Notes under the pieces: model-generated
The model's database searches: none
What the model was told of the DNA's origin: nothing
The model's input: the letters and a program-made list of their open reading frames with translations, nothing else
Made by a program: the position numbers and the translations under genes
In this document: positions 1 to 23,737 of the stretch, piece after piece
How the letters are laid out: the number at the start of each line of letters is the position of its first letter
Numbering within the stretch: position 1 is the first letter of the stretch
Virus record (IMG/VR): IMGVR_UViG_2740892036_000009
Location: 1 to 23,737 of that record
Strand: one strand, 5' to 3'
Source: a virus
Lineage: Duplodnaviria; Heunggongvirae; Uroviricota; Caudoviricetes
Length of the DNA stretch: 23,737 bases

Positions 1-996
1 TTATGGACGCATTATGGACATTCCTGACACCGGGTTAAGAGTCACAGCATCTTGTAAGAAATCCGGTGCAAAGTGTGCGTAGGTCATAGTTTGCTGAATG
101 TTAGAATGACCCAGGATGCGCTGCAATGTGATTATGTTACCTCCATTCATTATAAAATGTGTGGCAAATGTATGCCTCAAAACATGTACTGCTTGTCCGT
201 CAGGTAAATCGGGTTTTACTTCCCTGAGAGCGTTACGCACTTTGTAGTAACTGGCATTAAAAAGCCTGCCTGAATTTTTGGTCTTGATCCGTTTAATCAG
301 GTCCTGCGAAACGGGAATTGTCCTGCGTTTTCCGTTTTTAGTTTTCATAAACGTAACCATCTGGTTAATGATGTGTTCAGCTTTTAAATTAGATACTTCA
401 CTCCAGCGTCCACCAGTAGAAAGGCAGACCAGAGTTGCATTTAATTCATCACCATCAAGCATGGATAACAGCCGCGTAATCTCTTCACTGGACAAAAAAG
501 CCATTTCCGTAACAGCTTCACGTAACCGTTTAATCTCACGGAACGGGTTGTGAGAGTGGTATTCACCGGCGTCAATTAACTTGGTGAACATCCCGCTCAT
601 TATTGCCAGATGTCGATTTACGCTGGCTGGTTTCAGACCATCGTTCATCATTACAACGCGATAATCAGTTATCGTTTTCTTTGTTAGCTGGTCAGCTCTG
701 GACACTCCCATTTCTGCAAATTTGGCGATTATTGTCGTTAAACGCCCCCGTTCAATATCTCCACGCTCATGTGATTTTCCGTGATATATCCACCATCTGC
801 CTAACAACTCTGTAAGAGTTCGGCGGTCGGCTGGTTTCTCCAACCACTCTTTGTTGTGGTAGTTAACCAGTACATGACGTTCGAATGCTTGAGCTTCACC
901 TTTAGTTTTAAATTTCCGCCTGATACGTTTTCCATCTGCACCCTGCGGTCTGACGTCCACTTCATAACGACCATCATCGAGCTTTTTAATAGACAT
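1..996 (-). CDS. int: tyrosine-recombinase integrase (P2 Int-like), 331 aa
   Basis: ATG at 996-994 preceded by GGAGGG SD; C-terminal catalytic signature HVLRHTFATHF ... MTYAH (H-x-x-R ... Y); position next to repressor C as in P2; stop codon is at window position 1-3. Confidence 0.85.
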   Translation of the reverse strand: MSIKKLDDGRYEVDVRPQGADGKRIRRKFKTKGEAQAFERHVLVNYHNKEWLEKPADRRTLTELLGRWWIYHGKSHERGDIERGRLTTIIAKFAEMGVSRADQLTKKTITDYRVVMMNDGLKPASVNRHLAIMSGMFTKLIDAGEYHSHNPFREIKRLREAVTEMAFLSSEEITRLLSMLDGDELNATLVCLSTGGRWSEVSNLKAEHIINQMVTFMKTKNGKRRTIPVSQDLIKRIKTKNSGRLFNASYYKVRNALREVKPDLPDGQAVHVLRHTFATHFIMNGGNIITLQRILGHSNIQQTMTYAHFAPDFLQDAVTLNPVSGMSIMRP

Positions 997-2035: not shown

Positions 2036-2532
2036 CAGTGATGACGCTCAATCTCGTTGAAAAACAGCCAGCAACTATGCGCCGGATAATTGGTAAGCAT
2101 CTGGCCGTCCCTCGCTGGCAGGAGACATGCGATTATTATAATCAGATGATGGAACGCGAACGGCTAACGGTTTGCTTCCATGCTCAGTTAAAACAGCGTC
2201 ACGCAACGATGTGTTTTGAAGAAATGAACGACGTCGAACGTGAACGACTGGTATGTGCAATTGATGAATTGCGTGGTGCATTCTCAAAACGCCGTCAGGT
2301 TGGCGCAAGTGAGTATGCATATATTAGTTTTTTAACAGTCAGTCAGCGTCGTACTTTATTTATGCATGCCGGATTGACTGAAAAAGAATTCAACCAGCCA
2401 TACTGGCGAATTAATGAAGAGTCATGTTACTGGCGTGATGCTTTATTCCGTGCATTACGTGAATTATTCAGCCTGTTTGAGTATGCACCGACAATTCTGA
2501 CGTCGGTTAAACCAGAGCAATATCTGCATTAA
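2032..2532 (+). CDS. B: replication protein B-like (helicase-loader-type early gene), 166 aa
   Basis: Position between cox and A as in P2; 166 aa equals the P2 B length as I recall it; ATG 2032 has GGAGG 8 nt upstream (track start 2026 is too close to the SD). Confidence 0.55.
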   Translation: MTVMTLNLVEKQPATMRRIIGKHLAVPRWQETCDYYNQMMERERLTVCFHAQLKQRHATMCFEEMNDVERERLVCAIDELRGAFSKRRQVGASEYAYISFLTVSQRRTLFMHAGLTEKEFNQPYWRINEESCYWRDALFRALRELFSLFEYAPTILTSVKPEQYLH

Positions 2533-2595
2533 ATAATTAACCAGAGTTTTTAACGCACTTAATCGTGCGGGGCTTCTTTTTGCCTGGAGAAAGTC

Positions 2596-2820
2596 ATGCA
2601 TATAGTTTCTGAAAATCAGTGCGGTAAATACGCATTACTGCTGCAACAGGCCAGAACCGAAGCACAGGCCGATGCAGCGACGCGCTTTTCTTCTCATCTT
2701 GACGCCATGATTCGCCACATCACAAAGGCGGAGTTATCCCGCGTGGAGATAGTCGAGCTGCTCAGTCAGGAGTCGGAAAAATTTCACAATATCGGATTGT
2801 CTCGCGGGGAGGTGCTTTGA
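2596..2820 (+). CDS. hypothetical early protein (74 aa)
   Basis: ATG with GGAGAAAG SD; stop overlaps next start; in early operon. Confidence 0.45.
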
Positions 2821-3122
2821 TGTCCTGTTCTCGTTCAATTGTATTACTGAACAATGCATTAAAAATCTCCGTTATGAAAAATGGCGATTTGTCTCTTATT
2901 CAACTTAGGCTTGATAAAGAAAAACACGAAATAACTGAATCTGTTATCGCGATTTATCAGAACGAATTAAACCTCCTGTCTGATGTGGTCAATTTACTTG
3001 TGAAACGCGCTGTATTTCACAAGCAAATTTCCTCCGTAGATGAACTGACAAAAGTAACGGCTGAAATTGCCAGCTATTGCGCTGATGAATTTAAGAAACT
3101 GAACGACAAAAGGAGCTGGTAA
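2820..3122 (+). CDS. hypothetical protein (100 aa), AT-rich moron-like early gene
   Basis: ATG 2820 with GGGAGG SD 5-6 nt upstream; markedly lower GC than its neighbours; no recognisable motif. Confidence 0.45.
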   Translation: MSCSRSIVLLNNALKISVMKNGDLSLIQLRLDKEKHEITESVIAIYQNELNLLSDVVNLLVKRAVFHKQISSVDELTKVTAEIASYCADEFKKLNDKRSW

Positions 3123-3346
3123 TGCCGGACAACGTGGATTTTATTCAGGAACAACAGGCTGAATTACTGGAGCGCCAGATTAACGCGGCAAGGGTAAAGC
3201 ATTGCGGTGTTTCTGCGCTGGTTTGCGAAGAGTGTGACGCGCCAATACCTGCTGCCCGTCGTGCGGCTTATCCGTCAGCCACGCGTTGTGTTTCCTGCCA
3301 GTCAGTCTTTGAAGCAAAAAACAAACATTACCGGAGAACGGCATGA
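3122..3346 (+). CDS. TraR/DksA-family C4 zinc-finger protein (74 aa)
   Basis: CEEC-(x17)-CVSC spacing typical of TraR-type zinc finger; AAGGAG SD; ATG overlaps previous stop (TAATG). Confidence 0.65.
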   Translation: MPDNVDFIQEQQAELLERQINAARVKHCGVSALVCEECDAPIPAARRAAYPSATRCVSCQSVFEAKNKHYRRTA

Positions 3347-3618
3347 GTATTCGTATTGAAATTGGCGAACGTTATGTCGTTACCAGTGACAGCTTTCAGT
3401 TTATTCTCCACGAGAAAAAGAGAGCTGAAAGCGGTAAAAACGCCGGTCAGGAATGGCTGGCGGTGGTTGGTTATTACCCGAAATTAAGCCAGCTCGTTTC
3501 CGGCCTGATGCATCACGATATTCTGACCGGAAGCGCAAAGTCTTTTGCTGATTTAAACGCGCAGGTTGAGCAACTCAGCAGGCGTTGTTCAGAGGCTTTT
3601 GGCTCATATGGCCGTTAA
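3343..3618 (+). CDS. hypothetical early protein (91 aa), immediately upstream of A
   Basis: GGAGA SD, ATGA overlap with previous gene; conserved position before A. Confidence 0.45.
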   Translation: MSIRIEIGERYVVTSDSFQFILHEKKRAESGKNAGQEWLAVVGYYPKLSQLVSGLMHHDILTGSAKSFADLNAQVEQLSRRCSEAFGSYGR

Positions 3619-6371: not shown

Positions 6372-7916
6372 TTAAGCGCTGTGTTCCTTGTCGAATAAGT
6401 TCACTTCTTCTGGTGTAATATCAGTATCCATTTCTTCGAATGCATCTAAATCCACAATTTTTGTTTTTTTCAAAATTGATAGTATTTTCTGTTTGTTTTT
6501 ATTTTTGGCTGAACCCGGAATCCACTCTACATCCCACAGGCCATCAATGGTAAATGTTTTTTTTCCCTTGAGTTCATCATTTATGCGTTGACATAGGGCT
6601 GTTTTGTAATCGCCTTCCCATTGTGTGTGTATCTTCCCTTGAACTCGTTGAAACCAAATATCTAACATTTCAGTATTTGGTTGTTTACCTAGTTTACAAT
6701 GAAGTTGTTGTAACTTGCCAAATTTGAGTTCATCGTCGTCATAAAGGAAGGTCAAGAGTTTTGCGAAAATAGCCATTCCCACTGGGTAGGTGGTTGGGTT
6801 TTTAGCCATGATGCTTGAAATAATTCCAAGCATTGCATCTAGTTGATGCCCACTATTTGTGATCTTTTTCTTCCTAAATAATTTCCGCAAGAAATCATTT
6901 AAATATCTGACTGTAATTTTGGAGTTTTGATGTTTTAAAGAAAATAAATATATTGCATACAACATTTTCTGTAGGGAGTTGAACGACCCTTCTATAATAT
7001 ATTCTTTTTTTGCTGATTTAAGGGAGTGAAGAATGATGTCGTCATGTAGTTCTGTTTTTCTTGAGTTTAAATCAAGCCCAAACTCACCTAAGACCTCAAC
7101 CAAACACTTTGAGATTTTGTCCAAATCATCTTTACTGCTTGAAAATATTCGATAATCATCTCTGTAGCGAACTACTTTGTAATCCGTTATTTTTTGCTCT
7201 TCGGTTTTTTTTCTTAGCTGTAAATCAATTTCGCCTAAAATTAATTCGGCAAATGTATCCATCAACGTACTACCCAATGGTATTCCGTTTGTCTGATTAC
7301 TCATCATCATCTGGATATGAGTGTCAATCAATCGTCCTGGGTTATTGTTATTTTCTTTCTTTTTGGCCTCTTCTTTTGAGATGAATACCCATTCAAAGCT
7401 ATGAGTGTAAATAGAAGGGTAGAAGTTTGAAATATCTGTGCTGAACATGAACTCATACTCAAGAGCCAATGAAAGACTTTTTTGTTCAAAATCTTCCCAC
7501 CAGTTTAAAACAGATGCAGCTACGTTTGAGGTGTTCTTTTTGCTCACTGGGGTACTTGAGCATAAAAAAAGATCATTAGACTCAAACTCTCTAAATTTAT
7601 TCCTTATAGCATTCCAGTTGGAAGAGGATGTAATAAGTTTACAAAAATACACGTAGTACAGAGGATTAATTAGTGTTATTCGTCGCCAGCTATATAAGCC
7701 ATCTTTGCTGACTAAAACCTCGTAATTTATATTCTTCCCCATCAATGACTTGGAGTCAGGTTGGAAGTTGATTTTACCTTCATCTATCGCGGAGTTGATT
7801 TCTTCAAGCAAGGAAGAAAAATCGACATAACTGGGTAGCTCCAGAGTAGTGTATGAATCATGCTGCAGAAAATACTTAAGCGCTCTACCAGTAGTTAATT
7901 CATAAATCTTTTTCAT
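6372..7916 (-). CDS. reverse transcriptase, Abi-type (Abi-P2/AbiK-like standalone RT), ~514 aa from ATG 7916
   Basis: RT motifs in order: FMFSTDISNFYPSI (motif A Asp), GIPLGSTLMDTFAELIL (motif B), VRYRDDYRIF (YxDD motif C), LDLNSRKTEL (motif D); ~200-aa C-terminal extension; very AT-rich; occupies the tin/old cargo position of P2. Confidence 0.7.
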   Translation of the reverse strand: MKKIYELTTGRALKYFLQHDSYTTLELPSYVDFSSLLEEINSAIDEGKINFQPDSKSLMGKNINYEVLVSKDGLYSWRRITLINPLYYVYFCKLITSSSNWNAIRNKFREFESNDLFLCSSTPVSKKNTSNVAASVLNWWEDFEQKSLSLALEYEFMFSTDISNFYPSIYTHSFEWVFISKEEAKKKENNNNPGRLIDTHIQMMMSNQTNGIPLGSTLMDTFAELILGEIDLQLRKKTEEQKITDYKVVRYRDDYRIFSSSKDDLDKISKCLVEVLGEFGLDLNSRKTELHDDIILHSLKSAKKEYIIEGSFNSLQKMLYAIYLFSLKHQNSKITVRYLNDFLRKLFRKKKITNSGHQLDAMLGIISSIMAKNPTTYPVGMAIFAKLLTFLYDDDELKFGKLQQLHCKLGKQPNTEMLDIWFQRVQGKIHTQWEGDYKTALCQRINDELKGKKTFTIDGLWDVEWIPGSAKNKNKQKILSILKKTKIVDLDAFEEMDTDITPEEVNLFDKEHSA

Positions 7917-8121
7917 AATTAGTGATTTCTTCTTAAGTTGCGCACAAATAACTACCTGTTTTCTATCATGATAACGATGCGAATGCGAGCAATTCAGGAA
8001 GTGCATTACTCTGCATCGAAGCGCACGCAAGTCAGAGAACAATAACTGCCTGGCGACATCAGGACTGGCGCGCTAGTTGAGTGGTCATGCAACTGCATTA
8101 AAACCGCCCCATGAAGCGGGC

Positions 8122-8140: not shown

Positions 8141-8365
8141 CTGCGCGCTCCATTAACGACCATTGCATAATACTATTAGCCTATGAATCGAGTCATGAGA
8201 TGTTATCTTTACGATTCAGGCGAGTGCTTTCGTTACGATGAGTTGGTTTAAGCACACTATCTGCACAAAAAATAATCTGTTGAAGCGATTCATCATTCCT
8301 AACGCTCTAGAGTCTTAAATAAAAATATGTAAAATGCGTAAAATTTTTTGAATTATGGATCAGCT

Positions 8366-9448
8366 ATGCTTGGAACTTCATCACAAAGAGCTATTTCAGT
8401 ACAACATGTTGATTTAAATGTAAAGTGTTGGGTCGTTAGACCTGGGATTAAGTATAGATATTTTGCAGACTTCCTTGAACGCAATATGGTTGCTACTGCT
8501 CACTTGGATAGGTTAAGTCCAGATCAAATTGACTTTAATGATGAAATTAACCATGAAAATATTAATCAAAAGGTTGATGGGTTAGATACTATTGGTTCAA
8601 GAAATATTCATACCCAAATTGAAAATTTCCTCATAGATATGCAGGTCGGTGATGTTGTTTTCACTTTGTCAGGTGATATGGTTGTTCCTGGAGTTATTGC
8701 ATCTTCCGCGTATTTTGAGCGTGAATGTTTAGGTAATAATGAAGGGTTTCATGTAAGACGTAGAGTCACATGGGGAGAGCCAGTTCGCAGACGAGAGATT
8801 CCATTAGCTCTTCAGAAATCGTTTACTGCATACCAGACCGTATTCTCTTTGGGCGGGAAGTCAGAAGAAGTACTGCATTGGTTAATGTCATTCTTTATAA
8901 CGGATAATATTTTCTGTACTAGCTTAAGAGTCGAGCAAGCAGAAGCCATTCGGCATCATACTCTTAAGCAGCTGGCTGAGCTGGTCGATAGAGTGCAGGT
9001 ACTTGCGCTATTAATTGGCGAAGAGTTTGATGGCGAGTATACAAACGAAGTTGTTCAGTTTGAGATGGAAAGACTTTCTAATAATGGAGAGTTATCCTTG
9101 ACTGCTCAACAAATGTTGATGTCTCCGGGGGATGTTTGGCTACAATTTAAAACAAATAATAGAAAGGCCGGAATTGCGTTTATGTTAATTATGGGGGCCA
9201 TTTTTAATCATGATGTAGCCTTCGCTTCAACGGTTGATAATCGTATAAGTGAGGAACTTCGATCTCATATTGAAGGGAAAAAAGAGGTTGCAATGGATGG
9301 ATTAAACTTTGATAGAGTTTCTCAAGTTCTAGAGTTGCGTTTAAAAAGACAAAATAGAGGCTTTGTTTCTGCTCGTCCAACGAACCGTGAGATCGGACAG
9401 GGGATCAATTTCCCTGAAGATGGTGATGCGAGGCATGCGAGTGACTAA
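8366..9448 (+). CDS. hypothetical protein, 360 aa from first in-frame ATG (track start 8348 is TTG); cargo gene 1 of a two-gene operon
   Basis: Long uninterrupted ORF in a low-GC island; no catalytic or nucleotide-binding motif recognisable by eye; stop is 2 nt before the next ATG. Confidence 0.55.
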   Translation: MLGTSSQRAISVQHVDLNVKCWVVRPGIKYRYFADFLERNMVATAHLDRLSPDQIDFNDEINHENINQKVDGLDTIGSRNIHTQIENFLIDMQVGDVVFTLSGDMVVPGVIASSAYFERECLGNNEGFHVRRRVTWGEPVRRREIPLALQKSFTAYQTVFSLGGKSEEVLHWLMSFFITDNIFCTSLRVEQAEAIRHHTLKQLAELVDRVQVLALLIGEEFDGEYTNEVVQFEMERLSNNGELSLTAQQMLMSPGDVWLQFKTNNRKAGIAFMLIMGAIFNHDVAFASTVDNRISEELRSHIEGKKEVAMDGLNFDRVSQVLELRLKRQNRGFVSARPTNREIGQGINFPEDGDARHASD

Positions 9449-9450
9449 CT

Positions 9451-10140
9451 ATGAACTTTGAATTTGTAAAAGAACACTGGCTGATAATAGGCATGCTATT
9501 CATAGCATGTCTATTATTAATTTTAAAATTCAAAGATATTTACAGAACACACGATCAGTTTAATAACGTCGTGATGTCATTGTGCGCTGTTTTGACACTT
9601 GTGTGGGGAGGATATACTTTTGATGTTTTGCACCAAAGGGATAAGGCAGAAGCTGATCTTATAGAGTTAAGAAATAGAATTAGAAATACAGAATCGACAT
9701 TTTTTAATGTTGACGTTAATGTTGTTAAAATCGATGATGTGTTTTATATAAAGCCTATTGTAACTATTAGGAATAACAGTAATGAGCGAATTTATGTGAA
9801 GCTTAATAACAAGTCCCTTGCTGTTAGTCGTGTTTTATCGGCCGGTGCAAAGCAAGTCGCTACGGAAGTTTTTTATCCAAATTATTATGAGGAGTTGGCT
9901 GTTCTTAATGAAGAAAGTAGCTCGCAAGGAAAAGCTAAAAATATACCTTTATATGATATATCCGTTCCTATCTCTGCCGAAAGACGCTTGAACTATCTTG
10001 TTTCGACAAAAGAAAAAGGAATGTATTATGTAACATTTAGTGCTGAGGCAATGAACGAAGATGGCTCGCCTGTTTCTAAATACATAAATGGGAAAAAATC
10101 TATATGGTTTTCTTCTTCATATATTGAAGTTAAAGATTGA
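9451..10140 (+). CDS. hypothetical membrane protein, 229 aa, two predicted N-terminal TM helices plus soluble C-terminal domain; cargo gene 2
   Basis: Hydrophobic stretches WLIIGMLFIACLLLIL and VVMSLCAVLTLVWGGYTF; tightly coupled to gene 1; low GC. Confidence 0.55.
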   Translation: MNFEFVKEHWLIIGMLFIACLLLILKFKDIYRTHDQFNNVVMSLCAVLTLVWGGYTFDVLHQRDKAEADLIELRNRIRNTESTFFNVDVNVVKIDDVFYIKPIVTIRNNSNERIYVKLNNKSLAVSRVLSAGAKQVATEVFYPNYYEELAVLNEESSSQGKAKNIPLYDISVPISAERRLNYLVSTKEKGMYYVTFSAEAMNEDGSPVSKYINGKKSIWFSSSYIEVKD

Positions 10141-21229: not shown

Positions 21230-22138
21230 ATGCCGATTATCGACCTGAACCAGCTACCCGCACCGGATGTGGTCGAGGAGCTGGACTTTGAAACCATTCT
21301 CGCCGAACGCAAGGCGACACTGATTTCCCTTTACCCGGAAGACCAGCAGGAGGCGGTTGCCCGTACCCTGACGCTGGAATCCGAGCCTCTCGTCAAACTG
21401 CTGGAGGAAAATGCTTATCGTGAGCTTATCTGGCGTCAGCGTGTGAATGAGGCCGCACGGGCGGTAATGCTGGCCTGTGCCGCCGGTAATGACCTTGATG
21501 TGATTGGTGCCAATTACAACACCACGCGCCTGATTATCACCCCGGCAGATGATTCGACCATCCCGCCGACACCGGCAGTGATGGAATCTGACACGGATTA
21601 TCGTCTGCGTATTCAGCAGGCGTTTGAAGGTTTAAGCGTCGCCGGGTCGGTGGGGGCCTATCAGTATCATGGTCGAAGTGCCGACGGGCGTGTCGCAGAT
21701 ATCTCTGTCACCAGTCCTTCTCCGGCCTGCGTCACTATCTCTGTGCTGTCACGTGAAAATAACGGCGTCGCATCCGAAGACCTGCTGGCCGTGGTGCGTA
21801 ACGCCCTTAATGGCGAGGACGTCAGGCCGGTGGCCGACCGCGTGACCGTGCAGTCTGCCGCCATTGTTGAATATCAGATAAACGCCACGCTTTACCTTTA
21901 CCCTGGTCCCGAAAGCGAACCCATCCGCGCTGCTGCCGTGAAAAAACTGGAAGCGTATATCACGGCACAGCACCGGCTGGGGCGCGACATCCGTCTGTCT
22001 GCCATTTATGCCGCTTTGCATGTGGAGGGCGTGCAGCGTGTCGAGCTGGCCGCACCACTGGCCGACATCGTGCTCAACAGTACGCAGGCGTCTTTCTGTA
22101 CCGAATACCGCGTCGTGACCGGAGGCTCGGATGAGTGA
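21230..22138 (+). CDS. J: baseplate protein J, 302 aa
   Basis: P2 gpJ-like by sequence and position. Confidence 0.85.
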   Translation: MPIIDLNQLPAPDVVEELDFETILAERKATLISLYPEDQQEAVARTLTLESEPLVKLLEENAYRELIWRQRVNEAARAVMLACAAGNDLDVIGANYNTTRLIITPADDSTIPPTPAVMESDTDYRLRIQQAFEGLSVAGSVGAYQYHGRSADGRVADISVTSPSPACVTISVLSRENNGVASEDLLAVVRNALNGEDVRPVADRVTVQSAAIVEYQINATLYLYPGPESEPIRAAAVKKLEAYITAQHRLGRDIRLSAIYAALHVEGVQRVELAAPLADIVLNSTQASFCTEYRVVTGGSDE

Positions 22139-22742
22139 TTCGCGCCTGCTGCCGACCGGCTCATCACCGCTTGAAATTGCTGCCGCGAAAGCCTGTGCGG
22201 AAATTGAAAAAACGCCGGTCAGTATTCGTGAGCTGTGGAACCCGGACACCTGCCCGGCAAATCTGCTGCCGTGGCTGGCGTGGGCCTTTTCGGTCGACAG
22301 GTGGGATGAAAAGTGGCCGGAAGCGACAAAACGCGCCGTTATCCGCGATGCCTATTTCATCCACTGTCATAAGGGTACTGTCGGCGCAATCCGGCGTGTT
22401 GTGGAGCCGCTCGGCTATCTGATTGAAGTGAGGGAGTGGTGGCAGCTCAACGAGGAGCCGGGGACGTTCCGTATCGTTGTTGGCGTGCTTGAGCAGGGTA
22501 TTACCGAAGAAATGTATCTGGAGCTGGAACGTCTCGTTGCTGATGCAAAACCGGCGAGCCGCCATCTGACGGGACTGGCTATCAGTTTAAGTACAACCGG
22601 CAACATTTTTGCCGGAACGGGATGCTATCACGGTGACGCCCTGACGGTTTATCCCTACACCCCGGAGGCCATTATTGTCGGAGGGGATTATTTCCCGGCC
22701 TCGGTCATTCATTTAATTGATAACCTGAGAGTAAACGCATGA
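22131..22742 (+). CDS. I: baseplate/tail protein I, 203 aa
   Basis: Conserved position J-I-H; overlaps J stop. Confidence 0.8.
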   Translation: MSDSRLLPTGSSPLEIAAAKACAEIEKTPVSIRELWNPDTCPANLLPWLAWAFSVDRWDEKWPEATKRAVIRDAYFIHCHKGTVGAIRRVVEPLGYLIEVREWWQLNEEPGTFRIVVGVLEQGITEEMYLELERLVADAKPASRHLTGLAISLSTTGNIFAGTGCYHGDALTVYPYTPEAIIVGGDYFPASVIHLIDNLRVNA

Positions 22743-23737
22743 CAGTGAAATACTACGCCATTCTGACTAATCAGGGCGCAGCACGACTGGCTAACGCGAC
22801 GATGCTCGGCAGTAAGCTGAATCTGACGCAAATGGCCGTTGGTGATGCGAATGGTGTATTACCGACACCAGACCCGGCACAGACAAAACTGATTAACCAG
22901 AAACGCATTGCACCGCTGAATCTTCTGAGTGTTGACCCTAACAATCAGAGCCAGATTATTGCGGAGCAAATTATCCCTGAAAACGAGGGAGGATTCTGGA
23001 TCCGTGAGATTGGGCTTTATGATGATGAAGGCGTACTCATTGCGGTGGCGAACTGCCCGGAAACGTACAAACCGCAGTTGCAGGAAGGCAGTGGTCGTAC
23101 CCAGACTATCCGCATGATTCTGGTTGTCTCGAATACCGAAGCCATCACGCTGAAAATCGATCCGTCGGTGGTACTGGCGACCCGTAAATATGTGGATGAC
23201 AAAATCTCAGAACACGAACAGTCACGACGACACCCGGATGCATCGCTGACCGCAAAAGGTTTTACTCAGTTAAGCAGCGCAACCAACAGCACGTCTGAAA
23301 CACTGGCCGCAACGCCGAGAGCGGTAAAGATCGCGTATGACCTTGCTAACGGGAAATATACTGCACAGGACGCGACCACAGCGCGAAAAGGTCTTGTCCA
23401 GCTCAGTAGCGCCACCAACAGCGATTCTGAAACGCTTGCGGCAACGCCAAAGGCGGTAAAGACAGCATATGACCTTGCTAACGGGAAATATACCGCACAG
23501 GACGCGACCACAGCGCGAAAAGGTCTTGTCCAGCTCAGTAGCGCCACCAACAGCGATTCTGAAACGCTTGCGGCAACGCCAAAGGCGGTAAAGACAGCAT
23601 ATGACCTTGCTAACGGGAAATATACCGCACAGGACGCGACCACAGCGCGAAAAGGCCTTGTCCAGCTCAGCAGCGCCACTAACAGCACGTCAGAAACGCA
23701 GGCTGCCACACCAAAAGCCGTGAAGGCTGTATATGAC
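22739..23737 (+). CDS. H: tail fibre protein H, N-terminal 333 codons (runs off the 3' end of the window)
   Basis: MTVKYYAILTNQGAARLANATMLGSKLNLTQMAVGDANG... P2 gpH-like N-terminus; ATG overlaps I stop (ATGA); open to window end; not in the ORF track because no stop is reached. Confidence 0.8.
   Translation, partial: MTVKYYAILTNQGAARLANATMLGSKLNLTQMAVGDANGVLPTPDPAQTKLINQKRIAPLNLLSVDPNNQSQIIAEQIIPENEGGFWIREIGLYDDEGVLIAVANCPETYKPQLQEGSGRTQTIRMILVVSNTEAITLKIDPSVVLATRKYVDDKISEHEQSRRHPDASLTAKGFTQLSSATNSTSETLAATPRAVKIAYDLANGKYTAQDATTARKGLVQLSSATNSDSETLAATPKAVKTAYDLANGKYTAQDATTARKGLVQLSSATNSDSETLAATPKAVKTAYDLANGKYTAQDATTARKGLVQLSSATNSTSETQAATPKAVKAVYD
23267..23737 (+). repeat. in-frame 132-bp (44-aa) tandem repeats within H (unit ~LSSATNSDSETLAATPKAVKTAYDLANGKYTAQDATTARKGLVQ), at least 3.5 copies, copies 2 and 3 identical
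   Basis: Identical 132-bp units at 23399-23530 and 23531-23662, diverged flanking copies at 23267 and 23663; resembles the phage tail-fibre repeat family. Confidence 0.75.

Follow-up and report, generated by a model that had tools for sequence, protein, structure and literature searches.

An in-frame array of four PF03406 repeats in a P2-type tail fiber gene, probably extended by one recently added unit

The DNA analyzed here, a stretch of 23,737 nt that we call the window, ends in a tail fiber gene that carries 132-nt tandem repeats, two of them nearly indistinguishable from each other. Such a pair raises the question of whether the repeat number is real or a product of assembly, how the two like copies arose, and what a change in their number might do to the fiber. 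The reading we favor, to which we assign a probability of roughly 0.8, is that the gene encodes an in-frame array of four PF03406 repeats in the N-proximal shaft of a P2 gpH-type fiber, and that unit 2 of this array is one recently added period.

A P2-type (Peduovirus-like) E. coli prophage supplies the window, which covers its left part, and the open reading frames keep the P2 order: an integrase gene (1-996, minus strand) comes first, then replication gene A, genes for the portal and the terminase, those for the head, lysis, and the baseplate, and finally genes I and H. The late-operon order V-W-J-I-H is that of P2 and of annotated E. coli prophages, and P2-like prophages in complete E. coli genomes match the window at 97-99% identity across 81-90% of its length. 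The window opens with the stop codon of the integrase ORF, its last position, 23737, falls inside the fourth repeat unit of H, and only the left two-thirds of the prophage lies in the window. The right end holds the following features:

22131..22742, plus strand: gene I (tail/baseplate protein I), from the ORF list; a 612-nt gene annotated as 'phage tail protein I' lies directly upstream of H in the E. coli loci L001-L003
22739..23737, plus strand: gene H (P2 gpH-type tail fiber), first 333 codons, cut by the window end; no stop in the translation, which has one PF12571 domain and four PF03406 repeats
22739..23188, plus strand: N-terminal collar domain of H, residues 1-150 (PF12571, E 3.3e-63)

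The start codon of H at 22739 overlaps the stop codon of gene I (ATGA). The match to PF12571 (Phage_tail_fib) spans the entire profile (1-150/150), and this domain would attach the fiber to the baseplate. PF03406 (Phage_fiber_2) matches H four times (E 1.4e-79, 261.8 bits against a gathering cut-off of 22), and all four units align with the profile end to end, the best stretch covering profile positions 1-41 of 42. These two families, together with the position after gene I in the V-W-J-I-H series, bear out the original assignment of the gene as H.

The closest well-known counterpart is gpH of P2 itself (NP_046775.1), which likewise follows gene I and has the same N-terminal collar domain and the same 44-aa repeat, beginning with QLSSATNS at residue 178 in P2 and at residue 177 in the window. 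The DNA of the two repeat regions is approximately 87-90% identical, whereas the N-terminal 450 nt of H is too diverged from P2 for megablast, and P2 aligns only from query position 451. P2 gpH has two units and the window H has four. The C-terminal receptor-binding part, which lies outside the window, is also unlike that of P2, since the allele family of the window carries the glycine-rich domain PF21722 there. The PF03406 repeat was first identified in the lambda Stf protein and also occurs in prophage collagen-like fiber proteins (PMC3368898); according to the same paper, from 2012, little is known of its structure and function. Compared with PF03406 in general, what sets the window allele apart is only its copy number and the close likeness of two of its units.

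Searches of the PDB with the window fiber, by sequence and by profile, matched a single protein, gpS of phage Mu (PDB 5YVQ, 8JU3, 9KI1; E 3e-08 with the protein query and 5e-22 with a profile of the unit that had the Mu unit among its members). Mu gpS has one PF03406-type unit (residues 107-155) and no array, and this unit sits between an N-terminal attachment part and a C-terminal part; its N-terminal domain differs from that of the window H, and outside the repeat the two proteins do not match. Of the Mu fiber, the cryo-EM model shows only the N-terminus and the crystal structure the C-terminus, and the literature places the repeat region outside the cryo-EM model. An AlphaFold2 monomer prediction for the 333-aa fragment, made from an alignment of 12 sequences, was unusable (mean pLDDT 44.7, pTM 0.30).

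A single strong array was detected by Tandem Repeats Finder (23276-23686; score 703; 3.1 copies with 93% matches). Its period of 132 is a multiple of three and in frame with the H ORF. We retain the unit register of the initial annotation; the Pfam register places the first repeat from residue 169 (nt 23243), 24 nt further upstream. In the retained register, with only 75 nt of unit 4 present because the window stops there, the array is made up as follows:

23267..23398, plus strand: repeat unit 1 (44 aa), an older copy, which in the unit alignment has T both at unit position 96 (23362) and at 126 (23392)
23399..23530, plus strand: repeat unit 2, the putative added copy, which in the alignment has the body of unit 3 (positions 1-96) and the tail of unit 1 (T126 = 23524); missing from the three-unit loci L011-L015
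23531..23662, plus strand: repeat unit 3 (C126 = 23656), with 0 differences from the single middle unit of L011-L015
23663..23737, plus strand: repeat unit 4, first 75 nt only, terminal and diverged, with 0 differences from unit 4 of L001, L003, and L005
23363..23655, plus strand: perfectly periodic stretch of 293 nt, or 2.2 periods, with 161 consecutive matches at lag 132
23495..23523, plus strand: putative exchange interval, a 29-nt block at unit positions 97-125 in which units 1 and 3 are the same, bounded by the diagnostic sites 96 and 126
23266..23709, minus strand: antisense 147-aa ORF inside the array, from the ORF list, its translation itself periodic

The antisense ORF is most likely a by-product of the repeat rather than a gene. 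Units 2 and 3 agree at 131 of 132 positions (99.2%), and their sole difference, T at 23524 against C at 23656, is synonymous (GGT/GGC, Gly), so that their 44-aa translations are identical. Copies 2 and 3 had been described as identical at the nucleotide level, which is true of the protein and, once the register is shifted, of two full periods inside 23363-23655, but falls one base short in the register in which it was said. Unit 1 matches unit 2 at 115/132 positions (87%) and unit 3 at 114/132, with all 17 differences between units 1 and 2 confined to unit positions 4-96, and the available part of unit 4 matches units 1-3 at 56-58 of 75 positions (58/75, or 77%, for units 2 and 3), as the description of copies 1 and 4 as diverged would have it. 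Perfect periodicity over 293 nt cannot be due to chance. In full-length relatives unit 4 leads into the rest of the fiber, and because the array ends with unit 4 in the allele of L003, which is identical to the window over 999 nt, four is the full unit count.

Near-identical prophages carry a sister allele that is shorter by exactly one period. The four-unit allele is represented by WP_159373749.1, a 603-aa protein of a RefSeq E. coli prophage whose gene equals the window across all 999 available nt. The three-unit protein WP_186210444.1 (P0071; 559 aa), found on 26 contigs, is the same protein minus one unit and reads U1, U2/3, U4; for both proteins, comparison with the window is confined to residues 1-333 of H, where the window stops. 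The genes measure 1,812 and 1,680 nt, a difference of exactly one 132-nt period, and once one unit is removed only a few mismatches are left: 5 between L012 and L003, 1 between L012 and L001, and 1 between the window and L015. At the DNA level, the middle unit of the three-unit loci L011-L015 is the window's unit 3 (C126), and their unit 1 has T126. Upstream, L011 differs from the window at 0 positions in 3,000 nt and L012-L015 at 6-7 positions in 2.4-3 kb. Two of these loci are on chromosomes (L012 and L015, the latter taken from the record with the best whole-window match) and L011 is a draft contig. In 3/4 three-unit loci (L011, L013, and L014), H is followed by a PF02413 assembly gene of 136 aa, and none is called in L012.

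The sequence of unit 2 suggests how the longer allele came about. Units 1 and 3 differ at positions within 4-69 and at positions 96 and 126; unit 2 agrees with unit 3 throughout positions 4-96 and shares its T at 126 with unit 1. Two signs of a tandem duplication are present: unit 2 joins markers of both parental units in a hybrid junction, and the copies lie head to tail while a relative lacks exactly one period. Suppose that a three-unit ancestor U1-U3-U4 paired one unit out of register; if U3 and U1 then recombined unequally, or replication slipped from one to the other, within the 29-nt identity block (unit positions 97-125), the outcome would be U1-[U3 body + U1 tail]-U3-U4, which is the window sequence exactly, with zero further mutations. 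Since the product would match without an extra mutation, the T and C at position 126 of units 2 and 3 would mark the junction rather than a later mutation. The event may have been an exchange that depends on RecA or a slippage that does not. Were any 132 nt of the periodic stretch lost, the three-unit allele would be restored; with gain and reverse loss both possible, the array could move between copy numbers, and the junction by itself is silent on whether the latest step went from 3 to 4 or from 4 to 3.

The four-unit array is not private to the window genome. Five independent E. coli chromosomes (L001, L002, L003, L005, and L006) share the array down to the T/C site; their sources are chicken (Laos), human (India, Mali), cattle (France), and an ETEC isolate. 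One of them, L003 (E. coli CFS3246, with a 603-aa gene annotated as 'tail fiber protein'), is identical to the window H at 999/999 nt. A diagnostic 61-mer that spans the junction (C96 + T126) has a perfect match in 12/5,426 complete E. coli genomes. Given the independent chromosomes, the identical L003 gene, and these 12 genomes, the four-unit array is a real inherited allele and not an artefact of one assembly. The alternative hybrid with T at position 96, which would follow from an exchange in the neighboring 26-nt block, occurs in 0/5,426 genomes. With one junction in all 12 four-unit genomes and no alternative hybrid, the duplication may have arisen once and spread by recombination; a single origin with spread by mosaic prophage recombination is at least as likely as recurrence. 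The relative counts of three- and four-unit alleles in complete genomes are approximate: the U1-to-U2/3 junction is found at at least 99% in 27 records and the four-unit marker in 12, and four-unit alleles with an L002-type unit 1 are not among the 27.

Downstream of the 603-aa gene in L001 and L003, only incomplete, pseudogene-flagged tail-fiber assembly gene fragments follow. Among the closest relatives, truncated tail-fiber assembly fragments lie on opposite strands 3' of H (L001 5872-6304, L002 6226-6760, L003 5872-6406, L015 4162-4594), an arrangement that looks like the remnant of an invertible fiber segment and lies outside the window. In L005 (E. coli 200088, NZ_CM128592.1), an IS1A at 2501-3419 sits in the N-terminal part of the otherwise four-unit H, which is left in two pieces of 156 nt and 1,671 nt. 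In L001 (E. coli EF7-18-58), a 3' fragment of baseplate gene J comes directly after the holin gene (2773-3400), so this prophage is without the lysis-to-baseplate block and defective; its four-unit H is kept.

Unit number varies widely in the family. The initial annotation had proposed comparing it among related prophages, and this comparison gives an overall range of 0-7 units between genomes, with 3 against 4 in near-identical prophages. Among the 120 best protein hits, a sample biased towards more repeats, the counts are 3 units (52 hits), 4 (32), 5 (32), and 6 (5). Complete H genes retrieved from IMG/VR with a probe made of the N-terminal domain alone, and thus without repeat-number bias, have 0 units (17 loci), 2 (33, the commonest count), 3 (10), 4 (1), 5 (1), or 7 (1), and other enterobacterial species mostly have 0 or 1. 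Adjacent units in this second sample have a median nucleotide identity of 58% and a maximum of 96.4%, so the 99.2% of the window is exceptional, as expected for a recent event. The window allele is not the sole case of change: L007 (A, A', B, C) and L010 (A, B, C) differ by another one-unit gain or loss, and P0002, P0011, and P0013 contain three or four units with one and the same amino acid sequence.

Some alleles (P0025, P0035, L139) alternate a 56-aa unit variant with the 44-aa unit, and L139 (IMGVR_UViG_2541047897_000007) has seven units, including 56-aa units 96% identical in nucleotides, another recent expansion. Three contigs (L018, L019, L024) of an assembly labeled as a Firmicute, Vagococcus sp. 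WN89Y, carry an enterobacterial P2-type H that is up to 94% identical to the window in the N-terminal domain; this assembly is most likely mixed or contaminated. Mosaicism of tail-fiber genes was reportedly described by Haggard-Ljungquist et al. and Sandmeier et al. (1992-1994), and our literature searches for copy-number variation of the P2 H repeats in particular found nothing specific.

Divergence between the units argues for the recent origin of unit 2. At synonymous sites, units 1 and 2 diverge by 0.345 (pN 0.056), units 2 and 3 by 0.03 (pN 0), and unit 4 from the others by 0.62-0.72, with non-synonymous values of 0.056-0.105 for the older units. High pS with low pN shows that the older units have long been separate and under purifying selection, and the low values for units 2 and 3 mark unit 2 as young. 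Together with the allele shorter by exactly one period in near-identical prophages, these values uphold the suggestion, made when the repeat was first noticed, of recent duplication or copy-number variation.

The pattern could also be produced by concerted evolution, in which units 2 and 3 would be old and kept identical by ongoing gene conversion, with no recent duplication. The 3' halves of units 1-3 (unit positions 70-132) show only 1-2 differences in 63 nt while 16/69 positions differ in the 5' parts, a contrast that hints at earlier homogenizing exchanges and suggests earlier events of the same kind as the one that we propose for unit 2. As an account of units 2 and 3, however, concerted evolution is very unlikely: an exact three-unit sister allele is present in near-identical prophages, unit 2 bears the unit-1 tail marker that a crossover product predicts, and changes specific to single lineages have escaped homogenization at position 28 of unit 3 (L001), position 60 of unit 3 (L002 and L006), and position 116 of unit 2 (L005).

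An assembly artefact, in which the true array would have three units or some other number and the 293-nt periodic stretch would have been mis-resolved, deserves consideration because draft contigs are often interrupted at this place. Draft contigs contribute many 'partial' proteins to the cluster of the 603-aa allele, and these start at residue 307, 308, or 318, at the 3' edge of the periodic stretch; residue 307 falls at window position 23657, next to the marker C at 23656. These partial proteins fit frequent breakage of draft contigs at the array and lend indirect support to the earlier warning that short-read assemblies have trouble here. In addition, 17/80 IMG/VR loci end inside H. The draft contig L011, which has three units, shows 0 mismatches to the window over the 3,000 nt that precede H and over the first 660 nt of the gene. 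Nevertheless, 12 complete-level E. coli genomes carry the four-unit allele, one of them identical to the window at every available position, and we hold an artefact to be highly improbable. The usual short-read error at repeats is collapse, not expansion; on that ground L011, the draft with three units, would be the assembly to doubt first.

Programmed diversification, by DGR-like reverse-transcriptase-driven fiber variation or by a slipped-strand on/off phase switch, has next to no probability: the same prophage does encode a reverse transcriptase, but this enzyme is of the AbiP2 abortive-infection type and not a DGR reverse transcriptase, and the window contains no second copy of the repeat that could act as a template (best blastn E 0.43), which excludes the array as a DGR target; the differences between units are mostly synonymous and not adenine-targeted; and, because the unit counts 132 nt (44 codons in frame), gain or loss of copies always preserves the reading frame, which excludes a frame-shifting phase switch as well.

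The reverse transcriptase gene belongs to a cargo slot. It encodes 556 aa at 6372-8042 on the minus strand (PADLOC PDLC03744, E 1.8e-159; Pfam RVT_1) and lies between replication gene A and portal gene Q, the position of tin/old in P2. Two adjoining genes share the slot (8348-9448, plus strand, 366 aa, and 9451-10140, plus strand, 229 aa). The 366-aa protein has only a weak PADLOC match to PDC-S02 (E 2.5e-12), and the 229-aa protein has no match in Pfam or PADLOC; they are possibly an uncharacterized two-gene defense cassette.

The units lie between the baseplate-attachment domain and the variable C-terminal part. Working chimeras of P2 keep residues 1-370 and have the C-terminal host-range region swapped (PMC9942202). 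The initial annotation had called the gene a host-range determinant; the repeats themselves occupy the N-proximal shaft and lie outside the C-terminal receptor-binding part. Each unit may form one module of a trimeric fiber shaft, in which case copy number would alter length or reach, not receptor specificity. Alleles that have the same units 1-3 as the window separate within unit 4 and continue into different C-terminal parts (603 aa against 721 aa); the conserved units also look like joints for domain swapping.

A bolder proposal is that the PF03406 array serves as a fast, reversible 'length dial', gaining and losing units of 132 nt at measurable frequency within a lysogen or a lysate, with selection for fiber lengths suited to how deep the O-antigen or capsule layer of the host is. 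The array would then be a contingency-type locus for adsorption in temperate phages. We consider this unlikely, as the single junction type among the 12 genomes argues against frequent recurrence.

What we describe is a known repeat in a known gene, with an identical allele already in public genomes, and the change is ordinary copy-number variation by one recent in-frame unit duplication. The result leaves the knowledge of tail fibers unchanged, and its practical value is small but real. The array is a place where assemblies of P2-type prophages break or mis-count, and tail-fiber lengths from short reads are not trustworthy here. The chimeric unit 2 is a clean, datable example of the growth of a fiber shaft by one module, and the 559-aa and 603-aa proteins, otherwise almost identical, are a natural test case for the relation of unit number to adsorption or host range.
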